Positions 771 to 52,333 of a stretch of 64,000 nucleotides of DNA are shown here, one piece after another (positions within the stretch are counted from its first letter, which is position 1; each line of letters opens with the position of its first letter). The DNA is from a virus. Lineage: Duplodnaviria; Caudoviricetes. The stretch covers positions 32,001 to 96,000 of IMG/VR virus record IMGVR_UViG_3300043432_000485. One strand, given 5' to 3'. A program made the position numbers and the translations under genes. The notes beneath the pieces are model-generated. The model was not told the DNA's origin and searched no databases. It was given only the letters and a program-made list of their open reading frames with translations.

Positions 771-1109
771 ATGGAAATCGACAAGAGGGACGAGACAATC
801 GCGATCCTCAGGGAAGCTCTGCGGTTCTACGCGGCCCCAGGGAACTACCACGCCATCAGCTTCATGTTCGACCGGCCGTGCGGAGGCTTCGCGGACGACT
901 TCAGCAAGGACCATGGAGACGAGTTCTACCGCCGTAGGATGCCCGGGGCTCTAGCCCGCCGGGTGCTCCGGGAGAGCGACAGCGGGGTACTTTCACCGGT
1001 CCAATGCGAGGCCCACGGAATACCACTCAGGGTCGAGCCTCAGCTCTTCTGTGACAAGTGCACCGAGGAAGCTTTAGGGGACGAGGAAGCGAGCAGCGAC
1101 TCGCTCTGA
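771..1109 (+). CDS. Hypothetical phage protein
   Basis: ATG lies 7 nt after CGGTGTAGT (755-763); C-terminal CxxH...CxxC. Confidence 0.6.
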   Translation: MEIDKRDETIAILREALRFYAAPGNYHAISFMFDRPCGGFADDFSKDHGDEFYRRRMPGALARRVLRESDSGVLSPVQCEAHGIPLRVEPQLFCDKCTEEALGDEEASSDSL

Positions 1110-2111
1110 AGCTGTCTTCTCTTTGGGCTTCTTCTCGGACTCATCGTCCCCGCCCTTCATCTCGTTGAGGATCTTGGTCAGGTCCTCATCCGAGAGGTCC
1201 TCTTCCAAGGTTTTAGCAACGGCTGCCAGGATGAAGTTGGTCATGACCTCTTCCGGGTTCGCGCCCTTCTTACCCTCTTCCGAGGCGAAGTGCTCCATTA
1301 GGTGAGCGATGCCGTGCCCAACGTGGCCTAGCTCGTCCATTACGTGGAGGTGGCCCATGGACTTGTGCACGGATTTAGCCGCGATGTGCCGGGCCAGACC
1401 CTTGGCAAATATACCGGCGGCCCCAAGAGGTCCCGTCGCCGTGAGAGCTGCCGCTGCACCTCCGATAGCCAGATGCGTAGCAACCGCTCTGAAGGCGTGC
1501 TTCTGGTGCTTGGTCATCTTGCCGCCGGATAGCACTGACTTCACGCCAGCCGCTGCATCCTTGAACTCCTTGACCTCATGCTTGGCCGTATCAACCAAGT
1601 TGTCGAGCATCTTCTTGGGGGTCTTGGCTAGGTGAGAACCTGCTTCCTTCAGGGTGTTCTTGCGGAACTCATGATCCCCCAAGAAGCTCTTGATAGCTTT
1701 GGGGGCCGACTTCGCAAATGACTGAGCGGCATCAGACAGCCCCTTCAAGGTGTCCTTCCATGTCTCCAAACGGCCCGGCTTCGCACCCTTGGGGGCCTCA
1801 TGCTCGTCATGATCCCCGTGCTCGTCATGATGGGGCTTCTTAGCTTCTGGCTTCTTAGCTTCTGGCTTTGGAGCCTTGGGCTCTTCCTTCTTGACCTCCG
1901 GCTTGGGTGCTGGAGGCACTTGCTTCTTCTTGGCAGCGTCCGGGATTGGCGGGGGCTGTTTCTTGCCTGGCCCACCCGGCTTCTTTACAGTGTGCTTGGC
2001 CTTATCCGCGTCCGGATGCTCCTTCAGGTATTCCCTGAGAGCTTCGGGAGATGTGAATTCCTTAGCCTGTCGGGTCGCCCTCTGGACAACCCTCTCTGTA
2101 AGACTCGCCAT
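1074..2111 (-). CDS. Lys/Pro/His-rich protein with shared peptide motif at both ends (possible virion internal protein)
   Basis: 345 aa ORF; N-term MASLTERVVQRA, C-term KTASERVAARF; PEAKK repeats. Confidence 0.7.
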   Translation of the reverse strand: MASLTERVVQRATRQAKEFTSPEALREYLKEHPDADKAKHTVKKPGGPGKKQPPPIPDAAKKKQVPPAPKPEVKKEEPKAPKPEAKKPEAKKPHHDEHGDHDEHEAPKGAKPGRLETWKDTLKGLSDAAQSFAKSAPKAIKSFLGDHEFRKNTLKEAGSHLAKTPKKMLDNLVDTAKHEVKEFKDAAAGVKSVLSGGKMTKHQKHAFRAVATHLAIGGAAAALTATGPLGAAGIFAKGLARHIAAKSVHKSMGHLHVMDELGHVGHGIAHLMEHFASEEGKKGANPEEVMTNFILAAVAKTLEEDLSDEDLTKILNEMKGGDDESEKKPKEKTASERVAARFLVP

Positions 2112-2118
2112 GTCTTGG

Positions 2119-2628
2119 CTATTTCATCGAAGGAACCTCGGAACGCTCGCGAGCCCGGATGAACATCAGCATCCTCCCGAGTTTGTTAAGCCCAGTCCCG
2201 TTCTTGCCGGAACCCCAGTAAGCATCTTTGGGGGCGTTCTCGATCAGCTCGACATCCCCGGTGTCGAGCAGTTTACTGCGCAGTTCTCTTCTCTGAGAGA
2301 ACTTGTGCGTCAGACCCATGAACATCATGTGGTCCTTGGTCAGGTCCAGCATGTAGCCATGCTGATCCCGGAACATCTCACGAAGCGCCGGGGTCCCCAC
2401 CTCGTCTTCCCAATCTGGGCGGCATTCAATCTGCCCGCCCCAGCGCTTGGCTATCCCCGGGGTGAGCGCGCTGCGGATCTGCAGTTGCACTGCCGGGTCA
2501 TCGCTCTTCATGCTCTGGTAGAAGTGCTCAACCGAAGGGTACTGAATGCCCTGGACCTCGAAGATTGCCCCGAAGAAGTTGGACAGGTACCCGTTAGGAC
2601 CCCGGTTGCTGTAGAACTTGAGAGTCAT
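2119..2628 (-). CDS. NADAR (YbiA-like) family protein
   Basis: YLSNF...YPSVEHFYQSMK...KFSQ...L..TGD.ELIENAP.DAYWG.G..G.G.N.LG.MLM; ATG overlaps upstream TGA. Confidence 0.85.
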   Translation of the reverse strand: MTLKFYSNRGPNGYLSNFFGAIFEVQGIQYPSVEHFYQSMKSDDPAVQLQIRSALTPGIAKRWGGQIECRPDWEDEVGTPALREMFRDQHGYMLDLTKDHMMFMGLTHKFSQRRELRSKLLDTGDVELIENAPKDAYWGSGKNGTGLNKLGRMLMFIRARERSEVPSMK

Positions 2629-2948
2629 GCCCACACTCGAATCTGGGCATTGGGATTCTCTATGCAAGCCTCTAGAACTCTAGTCACAAAGTCCACCAAC
2701 CCGTCGTAGGTTCCCCACCCATTCTCGGGGTCCATGGCTTTGAACCTCTCTGGTTCTGCCTTGAGTAGCGCGAGTCCCCTCTCTAGAGTCGTGATGGCGT
2801 CACCGGCCAGTTTGAATGCATTCTCGTCCGGGCGCCAAAGTACCTCGTACAATCCTGCCTCCTTGGCCATGCCAGCAAGATTGTGGGTGACGTTACCGCT
2901 GAACACCTGGGTGGGGCGCATCTCTTCGAGGTAGAAATCTAGGCTCAT
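2625..2948 (-). CDS. Conserved phage hypothetical protein (MSLD...NxTHNL...NGWG)
   Basis: Intact ORF with ATGA overlaps on both sides. Confidence 0.7.
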   Translation of the reverse strand: MSLDFYLEEMRPTQVFSGNVTHNLAGMAKEAGLYEVLWRPDENAFKLAGDAITTLERGLALLKAEPERFKAMDPENGWGTYDGLVDFVTRVLEACIENPNAQIRVWA

Positions 2949-3517: not shown

Positions 3518-3539
3518 CTCTCCTATTACACCAAAACGA

Positions 3540-3569
3540 AGGGGCCAGAAGCTTGCGCTCCCAGCCCCT
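3540..3569 (-). terminator. Intrinsic terminator-like hairpin
   Basis: Minus strand AGGGGCTGGGAGC-GCAA-GCTTCTGGCCCCT followed by TCGTTTT, downstream of the secreted-protein pair. Confidence 0.6.
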
Positions 3570-3871: not shown

Positions 3872-6070
3872 TTACTGGCAGGCCTTGGCCCAGCCGATGC
3901 CCTTGTCCCAGACGTTGATGGTGCCGGCGCTGCAGCCGAACTTGATTTCACCGGTGTCACTGCCGCGTTTGCACGCGAGGATTTGGCTGCAGTTGCAGCC
4001 GCCCTTCTGCAGCACTGAGTCACCAACGCTGTTTGGCTTGAGGGACTGAGTTGGAACAGGGCCGGACAGGTTGGTACCCGGGCAGAGGTCCACGTCGTCA
4101 CTCACTCCATCCAGGTCGCTGTCGCTGATGTAGAAGAGCGCCGTATTCTTGAGACCGTTTACGATGAGGGATGTTCCGGCTCCGGTGGAGCGGCACATCG
4201 TGTCTGGGGTGCGCCAAACGATGCAGGCTCCTGGGGCGGGGAGATCCGCCTTCTTGACCTTGACCGCTGTATTGGGGCAAGCACCTTGTGAGTCGATGGT
4301 TGCACCCGGGACGTCGTTGATGCAGAAGTCGCGGTTTGCGTACGGGATCGTGACCGACTTGGTGACACCCGGTGGCAGGGTTGCATTGATAGCGATCGCT
4401 GGCTTGGTGCTGCCCCCGTTACCATCGGACGCGGTCACGGTGATGACCTGAGAACCACCCACGGGTCCGGTACCAGGCGGGAACGTCACTCCGAAGTTTG
4501 AGCCGCCGGGCGTACTGATCGTGGCGGTGGTGGAGCCATCGGGGTTCGGAGTGGTGGTGGAGTTGCCGCCTGAGGTCTGGATGGGGATGCCCTGCACCAG
4601 TGAGCCGTAGCTCAGGACGCGATTGAGAGCATTGTCGACCACGAACAACCGTCCGTAGGTGGCATCCCATGTAACGCTGTTGGGGAACAACATTGATGCG
4701 GCACTTGCCGGCTGGTCCAGCCAGGTGAAGGTGCCGTCCTGGGTGTTTTGACTCACGTGACCACAACCCAGAATCTGATGAACAGGATCTGATCCTGGAT
4801 CAACGGCGCCACCGGTCAAACTCGGGTATCCGAGCACATTGGACGGCGGGAGCCCATTCTGGGTCTTGGTTTGTGCATCTCCGGAGATGTCATAGGAGAC
4901 GACTCGGCAGTTGTAGAAGTCCGCAACGAACAGCCGGCGACCAGCATTGTCCACCGCAGCGGCGGCTGGGGAGTTCAAGTATGGGCCACCACCGTACGTG
5001 ACGGGCAGGGCGTCATAGTTGGGCTGTCCAATGACCCAAGTGGAGGGTGCACCGTTCGCAACCACGGAGGACAGGTTCGCACCCGCCGAGTAACGCCATG
5101 CGCGTACGCCATTTTGGGTCGGAACGTAAAGCGCACCTTCCGTGGGATCCCACGCCGGTTTGCCCGGGAAGTTGATGCCGCACGCGTTGGGGGTGTGCGT
5201 GCCGACTGGGCCTGAACACGGGGCGTCGACTCCGCCTTCAGACACGAGACTCTGTTGTCCGAGGACTTTCACCGCTGCCATGTTGTTCGAAATGCCCGAA
5301 GACAAGTCGAAGAACATCACGCGATTGCCCTCAGCATCGGACACGATGAGGGTCTTGGAGTTCGCCTCGAATGCGAGCCCGAAGGGGGCTAGCGAACAAG
5401 CATTGATGCCAGAGGTGGCAGATCCACTGCAGAAGCGGTTCGGCTCCGTGGTGGTGAAGTCCGACTGACCCAACACGAACACCGAGGTCTCACCGTTGGT
5501 GTTCGTGTCCCCGATGTTGAAAAACAACACGCGGTGCTGCCAGTAGTCACTGACAGCCAGGTACTTCGCAGTACCGAGCTTGATCACCACTACACTGGTT
5601 GGGGAGTACAGGTTGCAAGCGTTAGCCGGACCGGGCCACGGCACATTCGGATCCGTGCTGTTGACGCAACCAACCGCTGGGTTCTGGAAGTTGCGTTCCA
5701 CGCTGGTATACGTGCCTTGGCCGAGCACGAACAGGGTGGGGGCATTGGTTGAGCCGTTGCGGACATCCTTGGCTAGGACCCGCTGGCCCCAGGACTCCAC
5801 GATGTACAGGATGCCGGTCTCAGGGTCGAAGTCCGCATCATTGGGGGCCGTCACCGTCTGGTCACTCGATGGCTGAAGCACCTCGAATGCCTCGATGTCA
5901 GTCAGGGGAACCCCTACCTGTTTCACCGGATGGTTGAGGTCCGGCTGGCCAATGACCCCACCTGCAGGCATCCCGTTGCTCAGAATGAGCTGGGCGGTTG
6001 CACCTGCTGCGATGGCCAACATTGCGCACGTGAACGCAATTGTTGCCGTTTTTGTGAATGGCTTCTTCAT
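3872..6070 (-). CDS. Large secreted NHL-repeat (beta-propeller) protein
   Basis: Signal peptide from MKKPFTK; repeated LxVxD..NRV...VLGQ units; C-terminal DSDLDGVSDDVDLCP. Confidence 0.75.
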   Translation of the reverse strand: MKKPFTKTATIAFTCAMLAIAAGATAQLILSNGMPAGGVIGQPDLNHPVKQVGVPLTDIEAFEVLQPSSDQTVTAPNDADFDPETGILYIVESWGQRVLAKDVRNGSTNAPTLFVLGQGTYTSVERNFQNPAVGCVNSTDPNVPWPGPANACNLYSPTSVVVIKLGTAKYLAVSDYWQHRVLFFNIGDTNTNGETSVFVLGQSDFTTTEPNRFCSGSATSGINACSLAPFGLAFEANSKTLIVSDAEGNRVMFFDLSSGISNNMAAVKVLGQQSLVSEGGVDAPCSGPVGTHTPNACGINFPGKPAWDPTEGALYVPTQNGVRAWRYSAGANLSSVVANGAPSTWVIGQPNYDALPVTYGGGPYLNSPAAAAVDNAGRRLFVADFYNCRVVSYDISGDAQTKTQNGLPPSNVLGYPSLTGGAVDPGSDPVHQILGCGHVSQNTQDGTFTWLDQPASAASMLFPNSVTWDATYGRLFVVDNALNRVLSYGSLVQGIPIQTSGGNSTTTPNPDGSTTATISTPGGSNFGVTFPPGTGPVGGSQVITVTASDGNGGSTKPAIAINATLPPGVTKSVTIPYANRDFCINDVPGATIDSQGACPNTAVKVKKADLPAPGACIVWRTPDTMCRSTGAGTSLIVNGLKNTALFYISDSDLDGVSDDVDLCPGTNLSGPVPTQSLKPNSVGDSVLQKGGCNCSQILACKRGSDTGEIKFGCSAGTINVWDKGIGWAKACQ

Positions 6071-6841: not shown

Positions 6842-7640
6842 CTATAACTGCCGCTGGTATGGAGGTGCCTACGGTAGCTTCAACTATGAGTCCGAATATT
6901 TCACACGTTGGGGAGCCCGTTGGGACTACTCGGCTGTGATCCGTGATTCTGAGGGGCCTAGGGATAGTGCCACCACTGTCATGGGTAGGCTGGACATTGA
7001 CGGGTTCCGTAGCCAGAAGACTAGGCGCTATCGTCCCACTGAATGGTCGGTGAGCTTGGAGTTAGGACACCACAAGCAAGGGGTGGCCACCGGGAAGTGT
7101 CGCTCTCTCCTGCAAGCCATGCGAGATGCCGATGCAGCTCTAACTCAAGACGTGGTAAGCCAGTTCTTGTCCGAGGTGTACTGTCTATCCCCTTTGACCG
7201 AAAGCGTGTATAGGTACGTCCATAAGACCCCTAGCTTGTTTGAACACCTAAGAGCTGGGAGCCCGGCTGAGCTGAAGCGCATCCAACTGCTGAACCCGCG
7301 TAACTGGATTCCTTGGATGTCAGATCTGGGGATTCGAGGGGAATCCAGTTGGGCACTAGGGGGCACGTCCAGCGCGCCCAACACAGGCACCTTCCTAACT
7401 GTCAGCTCTCAGGATGGGAAGCTCCGCGGTAGCATCACCATCCGTGAGAACTGGTCCACCACCTGGCAGTCAGATGAAGGAGTGCAGGAGCTTGCTAGAC
7501 GCCTCGGTTCCTGGACTCACGGATCTGAGTCGAACTCAGATCTTGATAGGGAGACGGGGGCATCGACGAGAACATGTACCGATACTCTTTCGGCACGCCC
7601 TGCAAGATCTCTTCTACATTGTCTTCTCCCCGGGGGTTGA
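6828..7640 (+). CDS. Hypothetical protein
   Basis: Overlaps previous gene end; 3' end overlaps the opposite-strand gene by about 145 nt. Confidence 0.5.
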   Translation: MKSTDYNCRWYGGAYGSFNYESEYFTRWGARWDYSAVIRDSEGPRDSATTVMGRLDIDGFRSQKTRRYRPTEWSVSLELGHHKQGVATGKCRSLLQAMRDADAALTQDVVSQFLSEVYCLSPLTESVYRYVHKTPSLFEHLRAGSPAELKRIQLLNPRNWIPWMSDLGIRGESSWALGGTSSAPNTGTFLTVSSQDGKLRGSITIRENWSTTWQSDEGVQELARRLGSWTHGSESNSDLDRETGASTRTCTDTLSARPARSLLHCLLPGG

Positions 7641-9271: not shown

Positions 9272-10189
9272 ATGGGTTGTTTTGACTACAGCTGTGCCAT
9301 CTCTGGGCTGTCCATTGGATCCCAGGATCCCGTGCGCTTCCTGCTACTTACTCAGAACCCTGTCACCGATGAGAAGGGACATCGAGGGTGGAACCCTAAC
9401 TCCTGGTGGGTGCCTCGCTGCTTTCCCGTGCGCGCTCTTTACAGCCACTACGGCACCGTCGAGAACATCGAGCAGGGCGTAGGGTTTGACATCATGTTGG
9501 AGGGGCTCCGCCGGGACATCGTGACCCGGGAAGTCGGGGAGAACGAGTACCATGACGTCCCGGTTTGGCCCGACATGCCGTGGGACAAATTGATGGAGGC
9601 CCTTTGGGAAGAACGGGTCCTGGTCAAGATCGAACCTGCGATTGCGGTCCTCGCGACGATCAAGACCCCGCTTGTCGACTATGCGATGATCAGAGAAGAC
9701 GTGTGGCAGCGCTTGCTCCGCGTTCCCATCATCAACACGTTCACGGACAACACCCTGAGGATCAAGCACTTCCGGAAGGAGATCCGGAAGCTGTACTCAG
9801 AAGCCTTGGCTCACCGAGACGATAGTGTGAGGATCAAGGAGATCATGGACAAGGCGGGACAGCCAGATTTCGATTTCGATCAGGCGTGGGAGGATTTCCA
9901 CCACCCGCTCGCGTCTCTTGGTCTTCAGGTTCAGTTCGTCCCCGGAGTTGAGACTCATTGGCGGCTGCTGGTATCTCGCGGGCTGCCGATCGAGCAGGTT
10001 GAGGGCATCTTGGATTCGATCGCCGAACTCGGCTACTTGACCTGCATGCTGGCCAACCTCGGGCACCAGTGGAGGCCCTCCACCACGTACGGGATGCAAC
10101 ACGGGGACTTCCGTTTTCACACGCAATTCCTGCAGGCACTCGCGCAAGTTGGGAACAAACTTGCCAAGGAGCAAGAACAAAACGATTGA
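9272..10189 (+). CDS. Hypothetical phage protein (MGCF..SC.ISGL.I family)
   Basis: Long intact ORF downstream of CGGTGTACT. Confidence 0.65.
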   Translation: MGCFDYSCAISGLSIGSQDPVRFLLLTQNPVTDEKGHRGWNPNSWWVPRCFPVRALYSHYGTVENIEQGVGFDIMLEGLRRDIVTREVGENEYHDVPVWPDMPWDKLMEALWEERVLVKIEPAIAVLATIKTPLVDYAMIREDVWQRLLRVPIINTFTDNTLRIKHFRKEIRKLYSEALAHRDDSVRIKEIMDKAGQPDFDFDQAWEDFHHPLASLGLQVQFVPGVETHWRLLVSRGLPIEQVEGILDSIAELGYLTCMLANLGHQWRPSTTYGMQHGDFRFHTQFLQALAQVGNKLAKEQEQND

Positions 10190-12759: not shown

Positions 12760-13218
12760 CTAGCTGTGGTCACGATTGTTCCGCCCACAAAAAGTTGGAG
12801 ATTGGGAGTCGCAGTTGGGGCACACGAAACGGAGATTGTCAATCCGATCATCATTGCGTTCACCGTTAATGTGGTCTAAACGCAGGACAAGAGGTTTCCC
12901 TCTCCACTCTGGTCCCATGCCACATTCTGCGCAATTGTAGGGAATCAGACTATGAGTCAGGATCACGCGTTTCAGAGTCTTACGGGCATAGGATCCGTTG
13001 GGAACAAGAGCCGACTCCGGAGTAGCCAGTGGACGTCGAGTCACCGCTTTCCAGTGTTCTGTACTCAACCCTAGCTTCTGTACCGTGTTTCTTACTAGCG
13101 CATAGCTCGTGCCAACTCTGGCTATCCCCAGATATTGGATGGCTCTCAGAGTGGATGTGGTACGAGAGACCGCTTCTATGATTTCTTGTTCAGTAGGTGT
13201 ACGAGATTTTTTACCCAT
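12760..13218 (-). mobile_element. HNH homing endonuclease immediately downstream of the tRNA
   Basis: CAEC...LRLDHINGERNDDRIDNLRFVCPNCDS; AT-richer than flanks. Confidence 0.85.
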
Positions 13219-13238
13219 ATGTAGGTTAGGACTTAGAA

Positions 13239-13313
13239 TGGCGGTCCCGAGGTGATTCGAACACCCCTACTGCAATTTTAGAGGTTGCTGCCTGGCCACT
13301 AGGCTACGGGACC
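13239..13313 (-). tRNA. tRNA with CUA anticodon (amber suppressor type), encoded CCA end
   Basis: GGTCCCG/CGGGACC acceptor stem; GCCT/AGGC D stem; GCAAC-CT CTA AA-ATTGC anticodon arm; GGGTG-TTCGAAT-CACCT T arm; G73-CCA. Confidence 0.88.
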
Positions 13314-13426
13314 ATGTCCTACATCTACACCATTTTATGGATTCTGTCGCGCTCTTTTGTCTGGAGTTTTTGACCGCCCAAGTGTCTTAGGGGTAAGACT
13401 TCCCTCTGAACCAAAGGACACTGAAC

Positions 13427-14299
13427 ATGGGTAAGACAGCAATCAAGGCTCCTCGCGGCAAGACCAGCTTCCGGCTCGATCCGAACGACCCGCGCCTGCG
13501 TCTCATCGGGCACGACACCAACCACAAGGATGGCGAGCACATCTGCTACCAGGAGCGCGCCCACCTTCCGGTGGATGAGGAGTTCGCGCAGTACATGGCG
13601 GTCCATGGCTGCACCAGCGTCCTCATCGTCTTCCGGGACGGGGACTTCCTGGACATCGTGGTCGGCCGCCGCCGTCTCAAGGCTGCACGCCGCGCCAACG
13701 AGATCCGAGCTGAGCGCGGGCTGGACCCGATCCGCATCGAAGTCCAGGTCTTCGACGGTACGCCCCTCGAAGTTCTGGCCCTCATGATCACCGAGAACTC
13801 GCGGCGTCTCGAACCGCACGCCATTCAGATGGCGCTCGATCTCAACCGCTTCCTCCGCCTGGGGGCGACTCTTACGGAGGCAGCGTTCACGATCGGCAAG
13901 TCCGAGCAGACGGTCACCAACTACATCAGCCTTCTGCGCCTCTCGACTCCGGTGCAGGAAGCGGTTGCCCGCGGTGACCTCGCGGTGTCGGCGGCCATCG
14001 AACTGCTGAGCCTCACACGCGACGAGCAGACGGTCGAGCTGGTGAGCTTGCTGGCAAAGGGCGAGCGCCCGACGGCCGCCAACGTCAACGCGGCGGTCCG
14101 TACCAAGAAGTCCGGTGAGGCGGTTTCCCCCGCGCCCAAGACGCGCACTCTCCGCAAGCTGATCGCAGCGGAGGGCGCCGAGGAAGTGCTCGGGGAGAAC
14201 GGGATCGCGCTCATCCGCTTCGTGCTCGGCGAGCTGCCGGCGCGCAACATCAAGGGCCTGACCGAGCTGCTCCGCAAGGTGGAGAGCAAGAAGGCCTGA
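13427..14299 (+). CDS. ParB/Spo0J-like protein with HTH
   Basis: IVVGRRRLKAA, ITENSRRLEP, IGKSEQTVTNYISLLRL; strongly GC3-biased codons. Confidence 0.75.
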   Translation: MGKTAIKAPRGKTSFRLDPNDPRLRLIGHDTNHKDGEHICYQERAHLPVDEEFAQYMAVHGCTSVLIVFRDGDFLDIVVGRRRLKAARRANEIRAERGLDPIRIEVQVFDGTPLEVLALMITENSRRLEPHAIQMALDLNRFLRLGATLTEAAFTIGKSEQTVTNYISLLRLSTPVQEAVARGDLAVSAAIELLSLTRDEQTVELVSLLAKGERPTAANVNAAVRTKKSGEAVSPAPKTRTLRKLIAAEGAEEVLGENGIALIRFVLGELPARNIKGLTELLRKVESKKA

Positions 14300-20560: not shown

Positions 20561-20959
20561 TTAGGAACGCCCATAGTTAGTGTAGAACACGAGTCCGGAA
20601 GGCATCTCCATAGGCTTGATTTCAACCTCCCCAATCTGAAACAACCCAAAACTGGACGGTGGAGACTCTGGCTTAGGGGGGTACTCTAACAATAGTCCGG
20701 GGTTCTCATTATTGATGAGTGCATAAGCCTCCTTTACCGGCAAAGACAGTCCCCGAGCCGTGTTGGTAGCGGTCGATGAATGATGATCATGGCTGCATCT
20801 GGGTTTGTGAATCACCCAACCAAGGGCTTCTAACTCAGCCTCGTTGTGGGCATGCACCTTCTTAGATTCAATCAGCCATTGACGCTCGCGCTCGAAATCC
20901 TCTGGTGCCCAATTATCTACGCCGAGTCTGCGGATCCCTGGGAATGTTTGTTCGGTCAT
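20561..20959 (-). CDS. Hypothetical protein
   Basis: ATGA overlap; TAA-TAG double stop. Confidence 0.55.
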   Translation of the reverse strand: MTEQTFPGIRRLGVDNWAPEDFERERQWLIESKKVHAHNEAELEALGWVIHKPRCSHDHHSSTATNTARGLSLPVKEAYALINNENPGLLLEYPPKPESPPSSFGLFQIGEVEIKPMEMPSGLVFYTNYGRS

Positions 20960-21540
20960 ACCAAACTATCCTTTTTGCTCCATTGGGACAGCTTCACAGC
21001 TGCGCGCTTCAAAGCGTCGGGCTGACTGGCAACCTTCACGCCTGGCAAGCTCAACGGGAACTTGATCACAAGACGGCCAGTGCCTCGGTTGGAGCCCCAG
21101 AGCAGCAGCTCGTGCGCCCCCCAAGAGATCTCCGGGATCTCTCCATCGTAATGAGCTTCAGGGTCCGGATCGTAGGCCAACGTCACGTGGGGCTTGTACT
21201 CCGGATAGTTGTTCGAGTAGGGCATCTTCGCCGCATCGAGCTTGGCCTTTAGTGCATCCCGAAAGTCATGCAGCTCGGGCGAGAAGACCCTGCAGATCAC
21301 TGGCGTACCATCATCGCCCGCTGGGAAGCTGGAAACCCAATTGGTAGACACCGAGAAGGGGAGCGTCTTGGACGTCACTTCATACAACAAGGGAAGCATC
21401 TCCGAGATGCGTTCAATCGGGACGTCCTTTCCAAGATGAATCACCGTGATGTGAGAATGCTGCTCTCGCTTACCCTCTACAGGGATCTCCTGCAGGATTC
21501 TGGACGTCTCTTCGGGGACCGCGATCATCAATGCTGCCAT
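20956..21540 (-). CDS. 2H phosphoesterase (2'-5' RNA ligase / Acb1-like)
   Basis: Two HxT motifs: SHITV and PHVTL. Confidence 0.8.
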   Translation of the reverse strand: MAALMIAVPEETSRILQEIPVEGKREQHSHITVIHLGKDVPIERISEMLPLLYEVTSKTLPFSVSTNWVSSFPAGDDGTPVICRVFSPELHDFRDALKAKLDAAKMPYSNNYPEYKPHVTLAYDPDPEAHYDGEIPEISWGAHELLLWGSNRGTGRLVIKFPLSLPGVKVASQPDALKRAAVKLSQWSKKDSLV

Positions 21541-35305: not shown

Positions 35306-36190
35306 TCAGACCTGGAGCCACGTGGAACGATGCATCCATGGCTCCAGGGCATGCAAGAAGATCCCGACCGCCTTACGCCATTTCTCCTGATTGTGCTTGG
35401 CCAAGACCTCGAACAGTCCTTGGCCAAGCATCGAGAACTCGGGGGTGAGAGCACGGGGAATTACGACCTTCCTCTTCGCTCCCCTCGTGTAGAGCGCCAG
35501 TAACTCCGGGAGTCGTTTTTGAATGTCGTCTCGGGTGGCCGGAGCATCTTCTAGATCAGGATCTCCGGTCCGTTCGTATTCCAAGGCCATGTCCCGGATG
35601 TGCCGGAGCTTGTTCTCCCACTTGCGGATCTCATCCTTGAGCACAGTGTAGAACTCGACGTCATCCAGTCGGTGCCGAGTGAACTTGTCCCCCCTGGCAT
35701 TCTGATCGACCTCATCCAGCATACGAGCTGGAGGGACACCGGGTTTTGCCGGCACCCCCGCCGCGTCCAGGACTTCGCCCATGAAATGTTGGGTCCAGTG
35801 AGTCAGCTCATGCTCGACTGTTTCCACGTCAGGCCCGGATGAAAGGACTGTTGGGAACAGCTCGATCAACCTAGTCCCATGGTTGCGACCACCGACGGCT
35901 TGGGATTTGGGTTTGAACTGGACCTTCACAGTCAAGGAGACCGGTAGGACTGAGTCCAAAGCTTCCTTCAGACTAGACATGCGAGGATAGTACCGCCACC
36001 CTTGCAAGGTATGATCGGTGACCTCGAATGTCTTAGAGACAACGTTCTTGGGCTTCTTGGCCCCTTTTCTCTCGGCCCACACGCCAGTGAGCCAATCGAG
36101 GATGTCCTGTAGCAAGAGAGGCGGGACCGCCACTAGTCCGGCATGTCTCAGGAACCTGTCCAGCACAACCTGGGAAGAGACCGTGTCCAT
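35306..36190 (-). CDS. Zincin-like (HELTH) protein with N-terminal shared motif
   Basis: EHELTHWTQ...DVEF; N-term SSQVVLDRF. Confidence 0.6.
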   Translation of the reverse strand: MDTVSSQVVLDRFLRHAGLVAVPPLLLQDILDWLTGVWAERKGAKKPKNVVSKTFEVTDHTLQGWRYYPRMSSLKEALDSVLPVSLTVKVQFKPKSQAVGGRNHGTRLIELFPTVLSSGPDVETVEHELTHWTQHFMGEVLDAAGVPAKPGVPPARMLDEVDQNARGDKFTRHRLDDVEFYTVLKDEIRKWENKLRHIRDMALEYERTGDPDLEDAPATRDDIQKRLPELLALYTRGAKRKVVIPRALTPEFSMLGQGLFEVLAKHNQEKWRKAVGIFLHALEPWMHRSTWLQV

Positions 36191-38391
36191 CAGTCGTCCA
36201 GCTTGTCGATGATGGTGCCGTCTTTCATGTACGCGGGCTCCATCCCCGGAGCCAGGTACTGATTGCTCAGCGTGCTGGGTTCGTGCCCGAGTTCCTCTGC
36301 AACCTCTTCCAAGGCCTCTTCGAACTCGGCCTTGAGCTTCTCTTCCTTATCCTTGGGGTCAGACGGGAGAGTGCCTTTACGCGCCTTCTTGAGGGCCTTC
36401 TGCATGAGACTGTTGGCACTTAATCCGCGCAAGTCCTTGGCTGTGATCTCAAATGGCTCAAGGTACTCATTCACCTTGGCGGCCGTTATCGTTACATCGT
36501 CATTCGAGAACAGGCAGCCATCCTTGCCATCGGCTTCTTTGTATGCCTGACGCAACGCCGATAGGATAGCAGGGGTTGACACGGTCTTCTCGTGTTTCAC
36601 TCCGGACTTCCCCACGTACTTGATGGCCGCGCTCCCGGACCCCAACGTGATGTGGCTCTTCTTCCAGCCAGTCACCCCGTAGTGGGGATCACCTGAATCG
36701 TTCTTCTCACCCTTGGCTGACTCCTCGTTGCCCACTCGTTCATGGGTCTCGTCAATCAAGGCAACCGCCAAAGCAACCATTCTAGTTTCGGGGTCCTTTG
36801 CCTTCAGGTCCGACTTGTACTTGGCACGCAGCTTGTCCACCTTGCCACTGAATTTCTCCAGACGCTCGGCCTTGTCATTGTTCCGCTTGGAGACGGCCTT
36901 GTCAGAGTAGACATAGACGGTAGTCTTCCCCTTGCCGTTGGCCTTAGGGACTTCCTTCTTCTCCGTGTACTTGGCCAGCACCACATTGGGCAGATCAGCC
37001 GGACTCAACTCCAGGTTGCCGTCCAACAGCGCATCGGCCATCGAGTCATTGTCGTCCCAGTTGAAAGCTCGGCCCTCGCTAGGCAAGTTGGCCGGCACAC
37101 CGGTGAACCGCTCCAGCACTTTGAGAGAGATGTTGAGTGCGTTTCGGTAGCGTGATAGGACTTTCTCAGCCTGGCTCGCTGTCCTGACTCCAGGAAGGAT
37201 CATCTGCAACCAGTGCAACACCAATGGGTCAACGGTGCGGGGGCCATAACCAACCAACATCCCGATTGCTTCACAGAAAGCCTCCTCAGGATTCTTACCG
37301 GCATACCCGGTGATTGGATTCTGAGGGACGGTGAACACCTTGCCAGCCGCGAGTGCCGCCTCGAACTCTTCCCTAGATTGGATGTCCCTGGAGGACCGGT
37401 CATGGTTGCGCCCCAGCAGGTCCATCTGGATCGCGAGCGTTGGATCCTTGTCCTTCAGTAGCTCTGGCATTTGAAACAGCCAAGCCCCCTTGGGCCAAAT
37501 TTCCAATGCTCGTTGAGCGTCAAAGGGTCCATAGTTACCCCTGACGGCAGTGTTCCAGAACTCCTGGTCTGAGCCACTAAGATAGACACGATACAAGTGA
37601 TGCCCCATCTCATGGGCTATCACGTGAGCCATCTCGTTTCCGTGCTTGTAATCCCCAAAGGCGGACATGATGATCTCGATATGGTCACCCTTGTAGATCC
37701 CGCCCTCATCAAGCTTACGCAGGTACGCGATCAGCTTGATCGGCAGCATAGTCTTCAGCATCAGCGGAAGCACCTGTTGAGCCCGCTTCTTGAAGATTTT
37801 CAGGCCCTCTCGGAAGCGCTCCATATACTCGGCTTGACGCTCTTGATTGGACTCATAGTCGTAACCCACCACCGTGACAGTGAACCCCTCGATAGTGACC
37901 TTCTCCTGGTCCGGTATCTTTGCAGAGAACCCAGGCTTCTTGGTCACGCGCTGGTAGTACTGCAGGCACTCATCGAAGTCCTTCCAGAATACTCGCGCTT
38001 TGCCCTTGATCCGGGTGGCCCACTTCTCACTCTTGGTACTCAGAGTGTAGAGAGCCGCTCCCTCGGACATACTGTCGTACTCACCTCCCACCGTCGGTAG
38101 AGGGAAATCCAGTTCGATGTAGAAACCCCAAGCTGACTTGCGCAGCTTCTTGTCAATGTACTGCTTGTCGCTGTCTGACAGGTCTTCACTGTACTTGAAG
38201 TCATGGTTCAAGAAGTGATCGAAGAACACCTCGTTGAAGTTGCGCTTGAACGTCTTGACTGCATCCCTAAGGAGAGCCCCGTCCTGGTAGGTCTTGACCC
38301 TCGGGACGTTCTTCATCAAGGTCAGGAAGTCCTTGCGCAGCTTCTCGATGTAGGGTGAATCGAGGGTGATCTCTTTGGCCGTCTTGTTCAC
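36190..38391 (-). CDS. Fusion: zincin-like peptidase plus DNA topoisomerase IB
   Basis: HEMGH...GYAGKNPEEAFCE, then ERVGNE, YVGKSG, TAKDLR, LGH...QY; no stop between domains; GTGA overlap at start. Confidence 0.8.
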   Translation of the reverse strand: MNKTAKEITLDSPYIEKLRKDFLTLMKNVPRVKTYQDGALLRDAVKTFKRNFNEVFFDHFLNHDFKYSEDLSDSDKQYIDKKLRKSAWGFYIELDFPLPTVGGEYDSMSEGAALYTLSTKSEKWATRIKGKARVFWKDFDECLQYYQRVTKKPGFSAKIPDQEKVTIEGFTVTVVGYDYESNQERQAEYMERFREGLKIFKKRAQQVLPLMLKTMLPIKLIAYLRKLDEGGIYKGDHIEIIMSAFGDYKHGNEMAHVIAHEMGHHLYRVYLSGSDQEFWNTAVRGNYGPFDAQRALEIWPKGAWLFQMPELLKDKDPTLAIQMDLLGRNHDRSSRDIQSREEFEAALAAGKVFTVPQNPITGYAGKNPEEAFCEAIGMLVGYGPRTVDPLVLHWLQMILPGVRTASQAEKVLSRYRNALNISLKVLERFTGVPANLPSEGRAFNWDDNDSMADALLDGNLELSPADLPNVVLAKYTEKKEVPKANGKGKTTVYVYSDKAVSKRNNDKAERLEKFSGKVDKLRAKYKSDLKAKDPETRMVALAVALIDETHERVGNEESAKGEKNDSGDPHYGVTGWKKSHITLGSGSAAIKYVGKSGVKHEKTVSTPAILSALRQAYKEADGKDGCLFSNDDVTITAAKVNEYLEPFEITAKDLRGLSANSLMQKALKKARKGTLPSDPKDKEEKLKAEFEEALEEVAEELGHEPSTLSNQYLAPGMEPAYMKDGTIIDKLDD

Positions 38392-38891
38392 TGGGTGCCA
38401 CCAATTCTGCGCAGGTCCCGCAGCGCTGCCTTCAGCGACGGCCAGCCCATGTCCTCGCACCAAACGGATCCGCTGCGGTGCAAGGATTGGAACCGCTGCG
38501 GCCCGGACCCCATGTCCTGGATCCGGCACATCCCATCCTCGCTAGCCCAGACCGTTATCCCCGCGGGATCATCGTCCTCGACAAATTGGGAGGCCTGGGC
38601 CGTGCGGTATCGGGAGGCAACCGCCGCCTTCTTCTTTCGAAGCTGCTCGGTTTCCTCATCGTAGATCTTCTTGAACTTGGCCGAATCTTCCTCATTCATA
38701 AGCCGATAAGGTAGTAGATTCCTAGTCTTAGACTTCTTCCGCCCCTTGGGGACGGGCTCTATCTCTACCTTGAGGGTCTCCCCTTCACGGCGCACGTCCG
38801 TGATGATGCCCGCCCGGTTCTTGAACCGTCCGAACCACACGAACATGCCCGGCTTCGGGTCAGGGATCTTGATCGTGGTTTCTTCGGTCAT
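38388..38891 (-). CDS. Hypothetical protein (SH3/KOW-like N-terminus, shared motif internally)
   Basis: PGMFVWFGRFKNRAGII; KAAVASRY. Confidence 0.6.
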   Translation of the reverse strand: MTEETTIKIPDPKPGMFVWFGRFKNRAGIITDVRREGETLKVEIEPVPKGRKKSKTRNLLPYRLMNEEDSAKFKKIYDEETEQLRKKKAAVASRYRTAQASQFVEDDDPAGITVWASEDGMCRIQDMGSGPQRFQSLHRSGSVWCEDMGWPSLKAALRDLRRIGGTQ

Positions 38892-47328: not shown

Positions 47329-48156
47329 TCAGCGGATTACCGGGAGACTCTTGGTTGAGTTGCGCTTCTTCACGGCCAGTCCCTGATCCCCTGCATAGCA
47401 GTACTGACAGCCGAAAGAGCACGTCTCGTTGATGGTGAACGGGTCCACCATCAGCACGCAGCCGCAGCGCTCATAGGCTGGGCTCGCACCGGGGAAGTCC
47501 TTAGGCGGTACGCAAACGTCCACGGTGAAGCGCTGATCAGTTGCGTCAATGAAGGACAGGTCGTCCTGGCACAGCGCGATCTGGACCCCCGCCTGAGCCG
47601 CCTCATCGGCAAGCTCATTCAACAGCGCGAAGCGTTGCTCCTTGGTGCGCGTCTCGGGGATCCGATCATTGGGCTGCAAGAACGACACGAACACTTCTTT
47701 GAGCCCAGCGGTAGAGGCGTATCCGAGCAAGATCTTGAAGCGCTCCAGCACGACCCAATCCGGCAACAGGGGGATGGGGCTGAACCTCCAACGCACCAAG
47801 GAGAACGCCTTAGCGGTCTCGATCAAGAGATGCCCGGCATCCTCCAACGACGGGGCGCCGCGCTCGACTTCAGACCAGCCGGTGGCCGTCACGTGAACCG
47901 ACACATCGTAGTCTTGGAGCCTGAGCTGAGCCGCGATCAGGTTCCTGGGGTCCTTGGTCCAGAATACCAGGCCCAGCGTGTCCTCGGGGCGCAAGGACCA
48001 GACTGAGGGCACCCCGGTGCGCGGGTCGAACGCGATCATCTGGCCGAAAGCCAGGCACTGCTCGAACCATTGCCACTTTTGAGTTGATCCAGGAAGATCA
48101 GTCCAACGTGAGAGGCTGTAAGGTATCCCTTCGACCCGGCCGCTTCGTAAAATCAT
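47329..48156 (-). CDS. DUF1848-like (radical SAM-related) protein
   Basis: SLSRWTDLP, FWTKDP, WRFSPI, C-terminal CSFGCQYCYA. Confidence 0.75.
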   Translation of the reverse strand: MILRSGRVEGIPYSLSRWTDLPGSTQKWQWFEQCLAFGQMIAFDPRTGVPSVWSLRPEDTLGLVFWTKDPRNLIAAQLRLQDYDVSVHVTATGWSEVERGAPSLEDAGHLLIETAKAFSLVRWRFSPIPLLPDWVVLERFKILLGYASTAGLKEVFVSFLQPNDRIPETRTKEQRFALLNELADEAAQAGVQIALCQDDLSFIDATDQRFTVDVCVPPKDFPGASPAYERCGCVLMVDPFTINETCSFGCQYCYAGDQGLAVKKRNSTKSLPVIR

Positions 48157-48849: not shown

Positions 48850-49278
48850 CTACACTTTGTGCGTTTTTGGCTGATACCCGTGACTGCACGGTTTGACCGT
48901 GTACCGCAGCGCGTAACCGATCGATTGCAGGACCTGGAGGGTAACGGAAGCTGAAGCCGCTGCAGAGCCGTCGACTCCGAGGGGGTACTCCACGTCCACC
49001 CTGATTTGCCGGCGCAAGCCTGACTTCTCCTGGGCGGCCGTAAGGGGTCCGGAGGACTGGTGCCCCACAACCTTGAGGGGCACCGCAACGTCGAAGTCCT
49101 GTCCCTCAATCTGGATGTCCAAGGACTCCCCGTTAATTGAACGGATCACATCAATGTTGAAAGGTTTCGCAATTTTGCGGCCCTCCTCGAACAGCACGGA
49201 CATGACCTTGGTCTGAGGGCCGGCGGCGGTGCGGTCAGCGTACTTGCGCGCGACTTCTTCTGCCAAGCCCTTGCTCAT
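48850..49278 (-). CDS. Hypothetical protein with N-terminal shared motif
   Basis: Starts MSKGLAEEVARKYADRTAA (ATGA overlap with upstream stop). Confidence 0.6.
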   Translation of the reverse strand: MSKGLAEEVARKYADRTAAGPQTKVMSVLFEEGRKIAKPFNIDVIRSINGESLDIQIEGQDFDVAVPLKVVGHQSSGPLTAAQEKSGLRRQIRVDVEYPLGVDGSAAASASVTLQVLQSIGYALRYTVKPCSHGYQPKTHKV

Positions 49279-49778
49279 GACCCCTCGATGAAGCGGGCGG
49301 CCACCGCGGCGCCCACGAACCTGTTCGTCACACGCTCGGAAGCCGTCTTGGGCGCCGTGTGGGTGTACCGGGGCTCGAATTCCTTGGCCAGGTAGTTGAT
49401 GTAGTCGGCCAGGTACTTGCAGACTTGAGCCGGTGTGCCCGTCTTGGCCCGGAACTTCTTGGGCTGCTTCTCTCCGTGCCCCGCGTAGAGGGAGATGCTC
49501 ATCTCTACCTTCACCTTGCCGGTCGGGGCCGGCGCGTTCTCGTCCTTCTTGTCCCACCCGTCCACGAAGAACAGCGCCCGGTTGTTCTCGGCCTCGGCAC
49601 CACCGCCCGCCGAACCCACCCCAGGAGGCAAGTTGACGAAATTGATGGACATCATGTCGGATTGACCGAGGGAGTTACGACGCACCTTGACTTGGCGGCC
49701 GTTTGCTTTGGTCAATTTTTCCAACTCGGCGGAAAAATCGGCAGAACTGAGAATTTCGGCAGCAGCTTTGTTGGTCAT
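49275..49778 (-). CDS. Hypothetical protein with two C-terminal shared motifs
   Basis: KTASERVTNRFVGAAVAARF. Confidence 0.65.
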   Translation of the reverse strand: MTNKAAAEILSSADFSAELEKLTKANGRQVKVRRNSLGQSDMMSINFVNLPPGVGSAGGGAEAENNRALFFVDGWDKKDENAPAPTGKVKVEMSISLYAGHGEKQPKKFRAKTGTPAQVCKYLADYINYLAKEFEPRYTHTAPKTASERVTNRFVGAAVAARFIEGS

Positions 49779-49808
49779 ACCCTTACTAGACAGTATGCCA
49801 TCAAAACT

Positions 49809-51080
49809 CTACCCATGCGCAACCGATTTTCGCATCACGACAGCGGAACCGGGTTTGGCCACAGCTTCCGCGGTGATCCGGATGCTGGCGATGTCCTGGT
49901 CCTCTGGGGCCTCGTAGCTGTAGGGCTTTAGCACCTGTTCTACCACCGTTCGAAGCGCTCGGGCGCCTGTGCTGTATTGCTTGGCCTTGCGAGCGATCGC
50001 CAACAGCGCTTCGGGGTCAAACTGCAGGTCAATGCCGTCCAGGGAGAAGAGGGCTCGGAACTGCTTGCACAGGGAATGGTCAGGCTTGACCAACACGTCG
50101 ATCATCTCGGCCTCGGTCAGCTCAAAGGTGCTGCTCACGATGGGGAGCCGGCCCACGATCTCCGGAATGAGTCCGAACTCTTCTAGGTCCTGTACCGTGA
50201 CTTGGTGGTAGAGATCCGACTTCTCGAATTTCTTGCGGCCTTCCTGCCCAAAACCCATCCCGGAACTCTTGTTGAGCCGCTGCTCGATCAATGGCTCGAT
50301 CCCGGCGAAGCTGCCCGCACAGATGAACAGGATGTTGGTGGTGTCTATGACGTCGATCGTAGACATTCCGGAGACGGCCCTGGATCCTTGACCCCGAGGC
50401 ACCGGTACCTTGGAACCCTCCAGGAGCTTCAATAGGGATTGCTGCACCCCTTCCCCGGTAACGTCCCTGTATCCGGATGCGCTGCGCCCGCTCTTACGCG
50501 CGAGCTTGTCGAACTCGTCCAGGAACACAATGCCCCATTGGGCACGCTCAACATCCTGCTGAGAGTCGGCAAACAGTCCCTGAAGGATGGATTCCACGTC
50601 ATCCCCAACGTATCCAGCTTGCGTGAGGCGGGTAGCGTCGGCGACAAAGAAGGGGACGTCCAGCATGCGGGCGATCGCCCGAGCTAACAAAGTCTTTCCC
50701 GAACCGCTCGGTCCGAGCAACAAGATGTTCGACTTCTCGATCTCCACGGCCTCCCCATCGAGCAGGATGGCCCCGTTTTGCTGGTGCTCAACCTCTCGGC
50801 GGCGGTAGTGCCGATATACCGCGATCGCCAGCTCGCGCTTAGCCTCTGCTTGCCCGATGACCTGACGATCAAGTAGGGCGGTGATCTCCCGGGGCTTCTT
50901 GAGGACCTTCTGCGCCGGTTGCCCAGCCGCGGACTTCAGCTCTTCCTTGCGGAGAGTCTCCGCGGATCTGACGATGCACGTGTTGCAGATGTTGGATCCG
51001 TCCGGGCTCCCGATGAGGTTTTTGACCTCATTACGGGGGCGCCCACAGAAGTTGCACCGCTTGCTTGGATCCTGAGCCAT
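49809..51080 (-). CDS. clpX: ATP-dependent Clp protease ATP-binding subunit ClpX
   Basis: Zn-binding CNFC...CNTC, VIGQ, KSNILLLGPSGSGKT, LDEFDK, RDVTGEGVQQ, GARALR. Confidence 0.92.
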   Translation of the reverse strand: MAQDPSKRCNFCGRPRNEVKNLIGSPDGSNICNTCIVRSAETLRKEELKSAAGQPAQKVLKKPREITALLDRQVIGQAEAKRELAIAVYRHYRRREVEHQQNGAILLDGEAVEIEKSNILLLGPSGSGKTLLARAIARMLDVPFFVADATRLTQAGYVGDDVESILQGLFADSQQDVERAQWGIVFLDEFDKLARKSGRSASGYRDVTGEGVQQSLLKLLEGSKVPVPRGQGSRAVSGMSTIDVIDTTNILFICAGSFAGIEPLIEQRLNKSSGMGFGQEGRKKFEKSDLYHQVTVQDLEEFGLIPEIVGRLPIVSSTFELTEAEMIDVLVKPDHSLCKQFRALFSLDGIDLQFDPEALLAIARKAKQYSTGARALRTVVEQVLKPYSYEAPEDQDIASIRITAEAVAKPGSAVVMRKSVAHG

Positions 51081-51097
51081 TCCCCATATTACACCGA

Positions 51098-52333
51098 TCA
51101 GGAGAGGATCGGGTCAAGCATCGCCTTCAAAGGGGCAGAAAGCTTCCCGATGGCCAAGAAGGATACCATCTCTGCAAAGTTCTCGTCTGGGTGCGTGCCA
51201 GCGTAGCCGGTCACGAAGCTCATGTCTGGGTCAGCCTTGGGTACTGGCAGCTTCATCATCCGCAGCCAGTTGTCCAGAGGCGTGGAGAAACGGTGGGTCG
51301 TGTTGCCCTCTTCCATCCAATTCACAACGACTTTGCGCCGACTGATCTCCACCTTGGAGACGGTCAGCGTCTTGCCCTTGTAGTCGACCTTGTCCCCGGC
51401 CTTCGGGTATAGCTCGGAAGGAATCGGAGGCGGCTCGCTGGAATGGCGAAGCTTCCGGTACATGTCGTTGATCATCGAGCCGCGGCCCGAGAGGAACTTG
51501 TGCTGCAGTCGATGTGCAAGCTCATGGCAAACGATGCGCACGGTATCCCAGTTGTCCGGGGTGTTGGAGCGCACGAACATCTCATCAGCCGATGGCAGAT
51601 AGAATGCAGCCACGTTCTTCTTGTTGTTCACCGTCTGGCTGATGTGGATGTCCCCGTAACACACCTTGCCCAGCCCGATGGAACGCATGGCAGCCTCGGC
51701 CTTGGTGACGAGGTCAACGGCCTTCGCCATCACACTCTTGTCGAACCCGCCGGTGTTGATCAACGTGAACGAACCCGCGGGATATTTGACCTGCTCGGCT
51801 AGCTCTGGGTCCGAGTTGAGCTTCCCCTTGGCGATCGCGGCCTCAGCGGCACCTACTTGCTTGCGGAACTCCAAGCACACCTGCAGATACTTCTGCAGAT
51901 ATTCGAGATCAGCATCGTAAGTCCCGCTGTTGCTCTTGATCCGGATGCTCAGCTTCTTCTTCGTCCAGAAACGAGCCGCGCCCTCGATGGTCTTGCGCAG
52001 CTGAGCGGGCAGAACGTAGGATTGCAAGATGGCCAGGAACAGAAGCATCCCAGTGGTCTGAATTCTCCGGTACTGATACCCGGCTTGAAACTCACCCTTG
52101 ATCTCGTAGCGCATCCGGGAGGTTTGGGTAAGCTCCGCTGATAGCGCTTTGGATGTGTCGAAGTCCTGACGCTTCATCGCGTCAATGAATCCGGTGAGCT
52201 TCTCGATGTCCTTCTTGGCGGGCTCCTCGTTTTGCGTATAGCGCTCTACGTCGAACTTGAACTTCACCAGATCCGATGTGACGTCGGCGATGGCTTTGGC
52301 GGACAGGAAGCGAGCTACGATTCTGTCGTTCAT
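51098..52333 (-). CDS. Zincin-like peptidase paralogue with N-terminal shared motif
   Basis: MNDRIVARFL; HELAH...GYAGTHPDENFAE. Confidence 0.7.
   Translation of the reverse strand: MNDRIVARFLSAKAIADVTSDLVKFKFDVERYTQNEEPAKKDIEKLTGFIDAMKRQDFDTSKALSAELTQTSRMRYEIKGEFQAGYQYRRIQTTGMLLFLAILQSYVLPAQLRKTIEGAARFWTKKKLSIRIKSNSGTYDADLEYLQKYLQVCLEFRKQVGAAEAAIAKGKLNSDPELAEQVKYPAGSFTLINTGGFDKSVMAKAVDLVTKAEAAMRSIGLGKVCYGDIHISQTVNNKKNVAAFYLPSADEMFVRSNTPDNWDTVRIVCHELAHRLQHKFLSGRGSMINDMYRKLRHSSEPPPIPSELYPKAGDKVDYKGKTLTVSKVEISRRKVVVNWMEEGNTTHRFSTPLDNWLRMMKLPVPKADPDMSFVTGYAGTHPDENFAEMVSFLAIGKLSAPLKAMLDPILS

Follow-up and report, generated by a model that had tools for sequence, protein, structure and literature searches.

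A short capsid-targeting sequence (CTS) leads the internal proteins of phage T4, together with Alt, into proheads (Mullaney and Black 1996, as reported in PMC5694885). The subject of this analysis is another short peptide, here called tag A, which was noticed in a window of 64,000 nucleotides, bases 32001-96000 of a 203,362-bp IMG/VR virus record (IMGVR_UViG_3300043432_000485; ~43% complete, by estimate). Tag A has 10-12 residues and the consensus L-A-x-[RK]-V-[AV]-x-R-[FY]-[LA], often with [KR]-[TK]-A-[SA] in front; the window's phage has it on roughly twelve accessory proteins that are otherwise unrelated, many other huge phages have it on relatives of these, and it is located at either end of a protein or between domains. 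As with the CTS, a short peptide is common to unrelated proteins, the T4 bearers include host-modifying enzymes, and entry into the prohead is what we shall propose for the bearers of tag A; Alt has its counterpart in a tagged ADP-ribosyltransferase (ART-PolyVal) protein of the related phage LR745208. The CTS, in contrast, is confined to the N-terminus, where gp21 takes off its 10-20 residues by a cut after a glutamate, whereas tag A is also found at C-termini and at junctions.

Phage capsids share the HK97 fold with the shells of encapsulins, whose cargo peptide has a consensus of a Gly-Ser-Leu type. Like encapsulin cargo-loading peptides and the encapsulation peptides of bacterial microcompartments, tag A is short, hangs on a flexible linker and is attached to either terminus of unrelated enzymes, and a Dps/ferritin-like bearer echoes the ferritin-like cargo of encapsulins. 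Unlike them, it has R-V-A-x-R-[FY] as its consensus, the 203-kb fragment yields no match to an HK97-type capsid (PF05065), the container would be an infectious virion, and several alternative tags coexist in one genome. For the polyvalent proteins of phages and conjugative elements, in which zincin, ADP-ribosyltransferase (ART) and nucleic-acid enzyme domains recur, packaging and injection have been proposed (Iyer, Burroughs, Anand, de Souza and Aravind 2017; PMC5512222). The tag bearers share this enzyme repertoire, and they too include multidomain proteins encoded beside head genes, here directly behind the portal gene in relatives; in contrast, PMC5512222, as far as the available text goes, describes folded domains and processing and mentions no short peptide that is also found on stand-alone proteins.

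A portable peptide at protein ends and domain junctions

Each of the peptides listed in an initial annotation of the window is found in its gene and place (Table 1). The accompanying claim that the protein bodies are unrelated stands for the most part, the tag being all that BLAST finds in common among the bearers, with the exception of five bearers on the contig that are very distant HExxH zincins; three of these lie in the window (35306-36190, 36190-38391 and 51098-52333), and their similarity is marginal in BLAST. The window zincins have no match to the Pfam polyvalent-protein peptidases, a weak match to Peptidase_Mx1, and weak Foldseek matches to zincins (E above 0.05).

Table 1. Copies of tag A, and the ClpX homologue gene, in the window (positions are those of the window)
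Feature	Sequence	Gene	Residues	Position	Strand	Remarks
Tag A, C-terminal	KTASERVAARFL	1074-2111 (p345 family)	332-343 of 345	1083..1118	-	
Degenerate tag A, N-terminal	SLTERVVQRA	1074-2111		2076..2105	-	
Tag A-like tail, C-terminal	VKVAS...LKRAAVKL	20956-21540 (2H phosphoesterase)		20989..21039	-	weak, doubtful
Tag A, N-terminal	SSQVVLDRFL	35306-36190 (zincin)		36149..36178	-	
Two copies of tag A	RTASQAEKVLSRY + SLKVLERF	36190-38391	403-429 of 733	37105..37185	-	
Tag A-like, internal	KKKAAVASRY	38388-38891	86-95 of 167	38607..38636	-	
Tag A variant, N-terminal	GLAEEVARKY	48850-49278		49240..49269	-	
Tag A, second C-terminal copy	AAVAARFI	49275-49778	157-164 of 167	49287..49310	-	
Tag A, first C-terminal copy	KTASERVTNRFV	49275-49778 (p167 family)	144-155 of 167	49314..49349	-	
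ClpX homologue, 423 aa				49809..51080	-	between two tagged genes; Pfam zf-C4_ClpX 1.7e-12, AAA_2 4e-27
Tag A, N-terminal	NDRIVARFL	51098-52333 (zincin)		52304..52330	-	

The copies are of unequal quality. ASLTERVVQR, at the N-terminus of gene 1074-2111, is devoid of an aromatic residue and occupies the position of RVAARY/F in homologues; KKKAAVASRY of gene 38388-38891 fits the K-K-A-A plus VAxRY form of the C-terminal tags; and the counterpart of gene 48850-49278 in locus L012 starts with YSYDR, followed by ALRVVRKFL. The tail of the 2H phosphoesterase, which the initial annotation took for a weaker copy, is suggestive only: its L012 counterpart ends in GKTAR...AAWKSRY, and in relatives a 2H domain followed by tag A is found inside post-portal proteins. 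The T/S-x-x-E start of the tag, going by its residues, may amount to a helix-capping box.

In gene 36190-38391 the tag pair separates the zincin domain from a topoisomerase-IB domain (Pfam, residues 501-708). The LR745208 homologue of the zincin part has two tags at its start and ends at the junction point with RVASAFNRF. The gene itself (minus strand) encodes an HExxH zincin fused to a topoisomerase-IB catalytic core of the eukaryotic type (Pfam 8.8e-29). Elsewhere on the contig (11281-11865, plus strand) an N-terminally tagged protein belongs to the S-adenosylmethionine (SAM) lyase family (Pfam 5e-13), an enzyme known for anti-restriction activity in phage T3.

Motif frequencies were counted on our own rough gene calls for the 203-kb contig (231 genes, 86% coverage). 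The strict pattern [KR][VI][AVLT]xR[FY] has five matches in window proteins as against 0.32 in shuffled proteins. Derived from the window and applied to the 144 proteins outside it, which provide an independent test, it again has five matches (0.55 expected), every one of them at most 40 residues from an end (0.19 expected). The looser pattern [VIL]xxR[FY] has 27 matches, compared with 10.9 ± 3.3 in shuffles, 11 of them at most 25 residues from an end (binomial p=0.01); reversed, it has 16 matches without terminal bias, and the reversal of a 7-residue form lowers the count from 10 to 2. The comparison with shuffled controls that the initial annotation had proposed thus places the motif above background both inside and outside the window. 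Some matches of the looser pattern are probably due to chance (a PhoH-like protein, a transmembrane segment, the interiors of tail proteins). An unbiased scan of gapped 3-residue patterns, termini against interiors, ranked RV..R and R...RF high; neither these nor any other pattern reached significance after 41,305 tests in what was an underpowered scan.

Codons vary between copies (e.g., ACA/ACG, TCA/TCC, CGA/CGT, CGC/AGG), which places selection at the level of the peptide; a repeated DNA element such as a promoter or terminator is rejected as the cause on this ground. Positions outside the search pattern agree in four independent contexts: R/K at -4 (47-77%), A at -6, L/S at -7 and L/A at +2. 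A twin-arginine translocation (Tat) signal, which would be an N-terminal S/T-R-R-x-F-L-K with a hydrophobic stretch and an A-x-A site behind it, was also considered and rejected: the tag has mostly a single arginine, no hydrophobic stretch follows it, and many copies are C-terminal.

The assertion that the tag is portable is strongly borne out by three unrelated families in which it is N-terminal in some orthologues, C-terminal in others and replaced by another tag in yet others. Among 120 homologues of zincin 51098-52333, many of them from 280-550 kb contigs in public protein collections, 83 start with x-R-V-A-x-R-[FY]-L, some in duplicate; Y-S-Y-D-R-R takes its place in nine, and one homologue also has a C-terminal KTASLIERVAARY. 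In the p167 family (gene 49275-49778), whose conserved body ends in ...EPxFTHT, the tag precedes a Gly-rich linker at the N-terminus of about 26 of 55 homologues and stands behind the body in four, the window's own protein among them; Y-x-Y-D-R-R is found in six and LRKRYGHA in three. These p167 counts were made by reading the listed termini, since the conserved body end also fits the pattern and an automatic count overstates the C-terminal class. The p345 family (gene 1074-2111) has an N-terminal tag (RVAxR[YFH]) in 56 of 150 homologues and a C-terminal tag A, usually with K-[TK]-A-[SA] in front, in 21; a 24-residue tag, LRxxLIRLAHxxPxLRPxLLPLL, occupies one end or both in 13. Tag A is thus enriched, biased toward termini and conserved as a peptide; it changes from one terminus to the other among orthologues, and at least two other tags, Y-x-Y-D-R-R and the 24-residue one, can stand in its place. 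A portable docking peptide would explain this best.

Tags of the Y-D-[FR]-R type are also present on the contig, where terminal matches number four (0.68 expected), two of them probably being J-domain helices. One ends a UvrD-like helicase (...GYDRRQS; 165461-168895, minus strand), another a Dps-like protein (...REASAGYDFR; 181251-181901, minus strand). The YDFR start of the two J-domain proteins was set aside as a tag, for it is probably part of the J domain. In a related phage (L014, JGI contig Ga0247387_10002823), five small proteins encoded within 17 kb (5420-5689, 6998-7219, 9738-9971, 13089-13340 and 13340-13630) have similar tails (PTRFERL, TRLERI, TRFEREDVV) that resemble a further C-terminal tag.

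No cultured relative of the window's phage was found, and LR745208 (uncultured, 485 kb, complete) is the single GenBank phage record that turned up with related genes. Over its whole genome the looser pattern has 40 matches (25.2 ± 4.7 in shuffles), nine of them in the first 20 residues of a protein (p=0.007). The LR745208 orthologue of the contig's 270-residue zincin has its tag at the same place, and the 24-residue tag, in the near-invariant form TLRSKLIRLAHxNPxLRPxLLPLL, is carried by nine LR745208 proteins, by eight of them at the N-terminus (e.g., 351543-351824, 389893-390948, 398171-398575). PHROGs and Pfam assign no family to most tagged proteins, a protein atlas search returned hypothetical clusters only, Foldseek gave no informative match for the p167 and zincin models, and IMG/VR searches with single proteins (the 411-aa zincin; p167) found no close relatives.

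AlphaFold2 models built on family alignments represent tag A as a free, low-confidence helix on a linker beside confidently predicted bodies. In the p167 model the body (residues 12-133) has a predicted local distance difference test (pLDDT) score of about 90 and is followed by a linker (134-145) and a tail helix (146-165) with pLDDT 62-70. The model of zincin 51098-52333 has a body with pLDDT 95-98, preceded by a helix at residues 2-10 (pLDDT 60) and a coil at 11-17. Arg8 of that helix is at least 90% conserved despite its low confidence; a peptide that binds a partner would show this combination of strong conservation with no confidently predicted packing against its own protein.

Tags in the post-portal proteins of relatives

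The topoisomerase half of gene 36190-38391 leads to the head genes of related phages. In LR745208, its homologue is a module of a 508-residue protein, HAD plus topoisomerase-IB-like, that is encoded in the head module behind the large terminase and the portal and ends in ...TVASRWQDRFLD. Small proteins follow, and then a 472-residue protein, an acidic scaffold-like protein, proteins of 134 and 228 residues (the former with the 24-residue tag at its N-terminus) and the major head protein (phrog_2522, 2e-47). A search of IMG/VR with the C-terminal half of 36190-38391 found nine loci, eight of which, constituting five distinct lineages, have their head modules in the LR745208 order: terminase, portal, topoisomerase-IB-module protein, p221, protease, scaffold, p228, major head protein.

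The topoisomerase-module proteins of these loci, encoded directly behind the portal gene, range from 385 to 2047 residues. The domains assembled in them, as seen in those of 981-2047 residues, are 2H phosphoesterase, topoisomerase IB, poly(A) polymerase-like and HAD. In three lineages tag A is found at their domain junctions and at the C-terminus, where the shuffle rate would predict only about 0.02-0.03 strict matches per protein. In the 1321-residue post-portal protein of L031, a 2H domain (23-150) is followed by STSRVAARY (167), topoisomerase IB (197-397), AVRVAARYL (492), further sequence, and a C-terminal STARVAARFL (1309). Its L034 equivalent has three tags (QKVATRFL, KRVAIRF and KRIASRWL), and that of L032 has two adjacent copies. 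The stand-alone tagged enzymes of the window's phage thus have their equivalents in modules that are linked up beside the portal in relatives, the tags serving as joints.

Two further proteins of the head module have tails of a related kind. The 472-residue family is the head maturation protease (phrog_18299, E 1e-13 to 7e-15), and its C-terminus is a conserved [LFM][IVL]RLA[KRS]LL helix similar to the 24-residue tag; the tails of the scaffold-like proteins read [KR][TV]AS...LSKLW.SAP.

A proposed head-packaging signal and its competitors

On balance, and with some reserve, we favour the reading that tag A is a docking or processing signal for effectors that are packaged in the head and injected; binding, cleavage, packaging and the identity of a receptor are all things that we infer. 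The tag would be a short amphipathic helix, often N-capped by [KR]-[TK]-A-[SA] and joined by a linker to the ends or junctions of unrelated enzymes. A component of the assembling head (scaffold, inner surface of the capsid, portal or maturation protease) would read it, and the tagged enzymes would be packed into the capsid and delivered together with the DNA. The cargo would comprise zincins, SAM lyase, 2H phosphoesterase, the topoisomerase-IB module, a UvrD-like helicase and a Dps-like protein, with the ART-PolyVal domain added in a relative. More speculatively, the A-S of the K-T-A-S cap might be a site at which the maturation protease frees the cargo, by analogy with the herpesvirus scaffold tail.

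The initial annotation had proposed that the motif directs the packaging and/or cleavage of injected cargo. This receives partial, circumstantial support from the tags of post-portal proteins, from the tails of protease and scaffold, and from the types of enzyme that bear tags: zincins, ART-PolyVal, 2H phosphoesterase, SAM lyase and topoisomerase IB match the packaged polyvalent effectors. The HK97 protease and the herpesvirus scaffold have C-terminal tails that attach to the inside of the capsid. In herpesviruses the tail is cut at Ala-Ser, and the tail of the HK97 protease, reportedly treated by Duda and colleagues in 2013, is a precedent for head targeting. The maturation protease and scaffold of these huge phages likewise have a conserved C-terminal tail each, and the K-T-A-S in front of the scaffold tail and of many tag A copies recalls the Ala-Ser maturation site; unlike the HK97 and herpesvirus tails, the tag is spread over many cargo proteins. 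The T4 analogy that had been drawn does not extend to detail. The tag is not only N-terminal, has no sequence likeness to the T4 signal and has no conserved glutamate cleavage site: a site for the prohead protease, which is [LI]-x-E in T4 and [SAG]-x-E in the phiKZ-like phages, would demand a glutamate, and none is conserved at +2 to +5 across families, with E at +4 in the p167 family only, at 50%.

Several observations weigh against head packaging. The clade has no cultured member. Pfam capsid (including PF05065), terminase and protease models have no match on the 203-kb fragment; the head module of the window's phage is not on it, so that the link to the head rests on relatives at 35-55% identity, and most tagged genes of the window's phage are placed among non-structural genes. 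By the pattern used, the post-portal proteins of L028 and L030 are without tag A. LR745208 shows no significant excess when the 25 residues next to each end are taken together (p=0.39), its bias being N-terminal only; no conserved cleavage motif was found behind N-terminal tags in the four contexts compared; and it would be unusual for a UvrD-like helicase or a Dps-like protein to be packaged.

A bolder version, which we hold only tentatively and think rather improbable as a whole, is that of a huge-phage clade with orientation-independent cargo loading. Interchangeable address peptides (tag A, Y-x-Y-D-R-R, LIRLAH) would form a small code modelled on the tails of protease and scaffold, and a large and modular anti-host arsenal would be packed as stand-alone proteins or strung together behind the portal. 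The papers searched contain no description of the motif; what is new is that the tag moves from end to end, that it is exchanged for other tags and that it stands at the joints of post-portal multidomain proteins, and either-end and junctional placement together with tag interchange go beyond what is described for the T4 CTS. Huge phages have hundreds of accessory genes of which the destinations are not known. If the label predicts which proteins are borne in the capsid, the injected arsenal (anti-restriction SAM lyase, 2H phosphoesterases, ADP-ribosyltransferases, peptidases, topoisomerase) becomes directly legible in metagenomic genomes. Head packaging would also account for the interconversion of polyvalent effector proteins and stand-alone enzymes, and would make a short peptide available with which foreign proteins could be brought into large capsids.

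All the evidence for portable docking would suit any hub, and the one that is docked on need not be the virion: it might be a replication/transcription factory, a volactin-like actin filament, or the chaperone system of the phage's J-domain proteins, on the part of phage or host. Several bearers act on DNA (topoisomerase IB, the UvrD-like helicase, the Dps-like protein and a small putative winged-helix protein), and an actin homologue of the volactin family, encoded in the neck/tail gene block (contig 180200-181216, minus strand; Pfam PF25216, 2.4e-78), is the best-conserved protein in common with LR745208 (57% identity); its gene adjoins that of the Dps-like protein, which ends in YDFR, the second tag type. 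Docking of this sort leaves unexplained, however, why post-portal proteins have tags and why protease and scaffold tails have related elements, and a replication hub would have no obvious use for zincins, ART and SAM lyase. A hub outside the virion is unlikely.

The presence of tags exactly at the domain junctions of post-portal proteins and of gene 36190-38391 could also be read to mean that the motif is mainly a cleavage or recognition site, for the maturation protease or the zincins, with terminal copies as remnants of gene fission. The same domain types are tagged and unbundled in the window's phage, an A-S dipeptide stands ahead of many copies, and autoproteolytic processing of polyvalent proteins by their zincin peptidases has been proposed (PMC5512222). 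Remnants would not be expected to persist as they do, with complete tags in the same orientation kept at the extreme termini of hundreds of orthologues where a cut would cost only ~10 residues; nor would a cleavage site account for tandem duplication or for swapping with unrelated tags, and no invariant scissile position is seen. We consider this improbable.

A tethering signal or degron for ClpX, of phage or host, through which early proteins would be unfolded or degraded on time, is also improbable, if anything more so. The ALRVV core of many tags presumably resembles the ClpX-binding tail of SspB, and we take T-A-[KS] to resemble the N-terminal signals of lambda O and Dps. In the window the gene for a ClpX homologue with an N-terminal zinc finger is itself situated between tagged genes. 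ClpX degrons can be N-terminal or C-terminal (PMC12723719, citing Flynn et al. 2003), and the signals and adaptor tails described in that paper are, like tag A, short. Unlike them, tag A keeps one orientation whether it stands at an N-terminus, at a C-terminus or at a junction, which is not expected of degrons that must engage a pore, and it is associated with the head module, a link that ClpX leaves unexplained. LR745208, complete and tag-bearing, has no ClpX, ClpP was not found on the 203-kb fragment, and in L012 the clpX gene is not beside the zincin orthologue.

MinD and FtsA provide the comparison for a membrane-targeting amphipathic helix, and a short terminal helix on a linker, in which arginines flank a V/F/L face and which is found at either end, in some cases twice, is formally of that kind. 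The hydrophobic face is small and alanine-rich, however, the polar Y-x-Y-D-R-R substitutes for the tag in orthologues, and neither the conservation of R-V-A-x-R-[FY] nor its 2- to 5-fold excess over the reversed pattern is expected of a physicochemical signal; membrane targeting is accordingly very improbable. That there is no common function, and that chance matches are mixed with a family-specific structural helix, is scarcely credible: the motif is short, some listed matches are probably chance and the gapped 3-residue scan was not significant, but replication outside the window, three families that swap tags, agreement at positions outside the pattern, and the reappearance of the tag both in a second genome and among post-portal proteins contradict it.

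Neighbouring genes and minor observations

Among the other genes of the window are those for a family-A DNA polymerase, for helicases and for tail proteins. The ClpX homologue has a C4 zinc finger, an AAA+ module and a GYVG pore loop, with an MGF loop in place of IGF. The tagged gene cluster in which it lies is flanked on one side by a carbon-nitrogen hydrolase (window 52337-53092, minus strand; Pfam 9e-22) and on the other by a DUF1848 protein (window 47329-48156, minus strand; Pfam 6e-21). A tRNA with a CUA anticodon, labelled tRNA-Pyl by ARAGORN, is encoded at window 13239-13313 (minus strand) and is a candidate amber suppressor; TAG still closes seven of 59 long open reading frames. LR745208 has three copies of a ~480-residue protein with a C-terminal zinc-ribbon motif (93-1535, 181569-183023 and 460773-462209), which by eye resembles a transposon nuclease of the TnpB/OrfB type.

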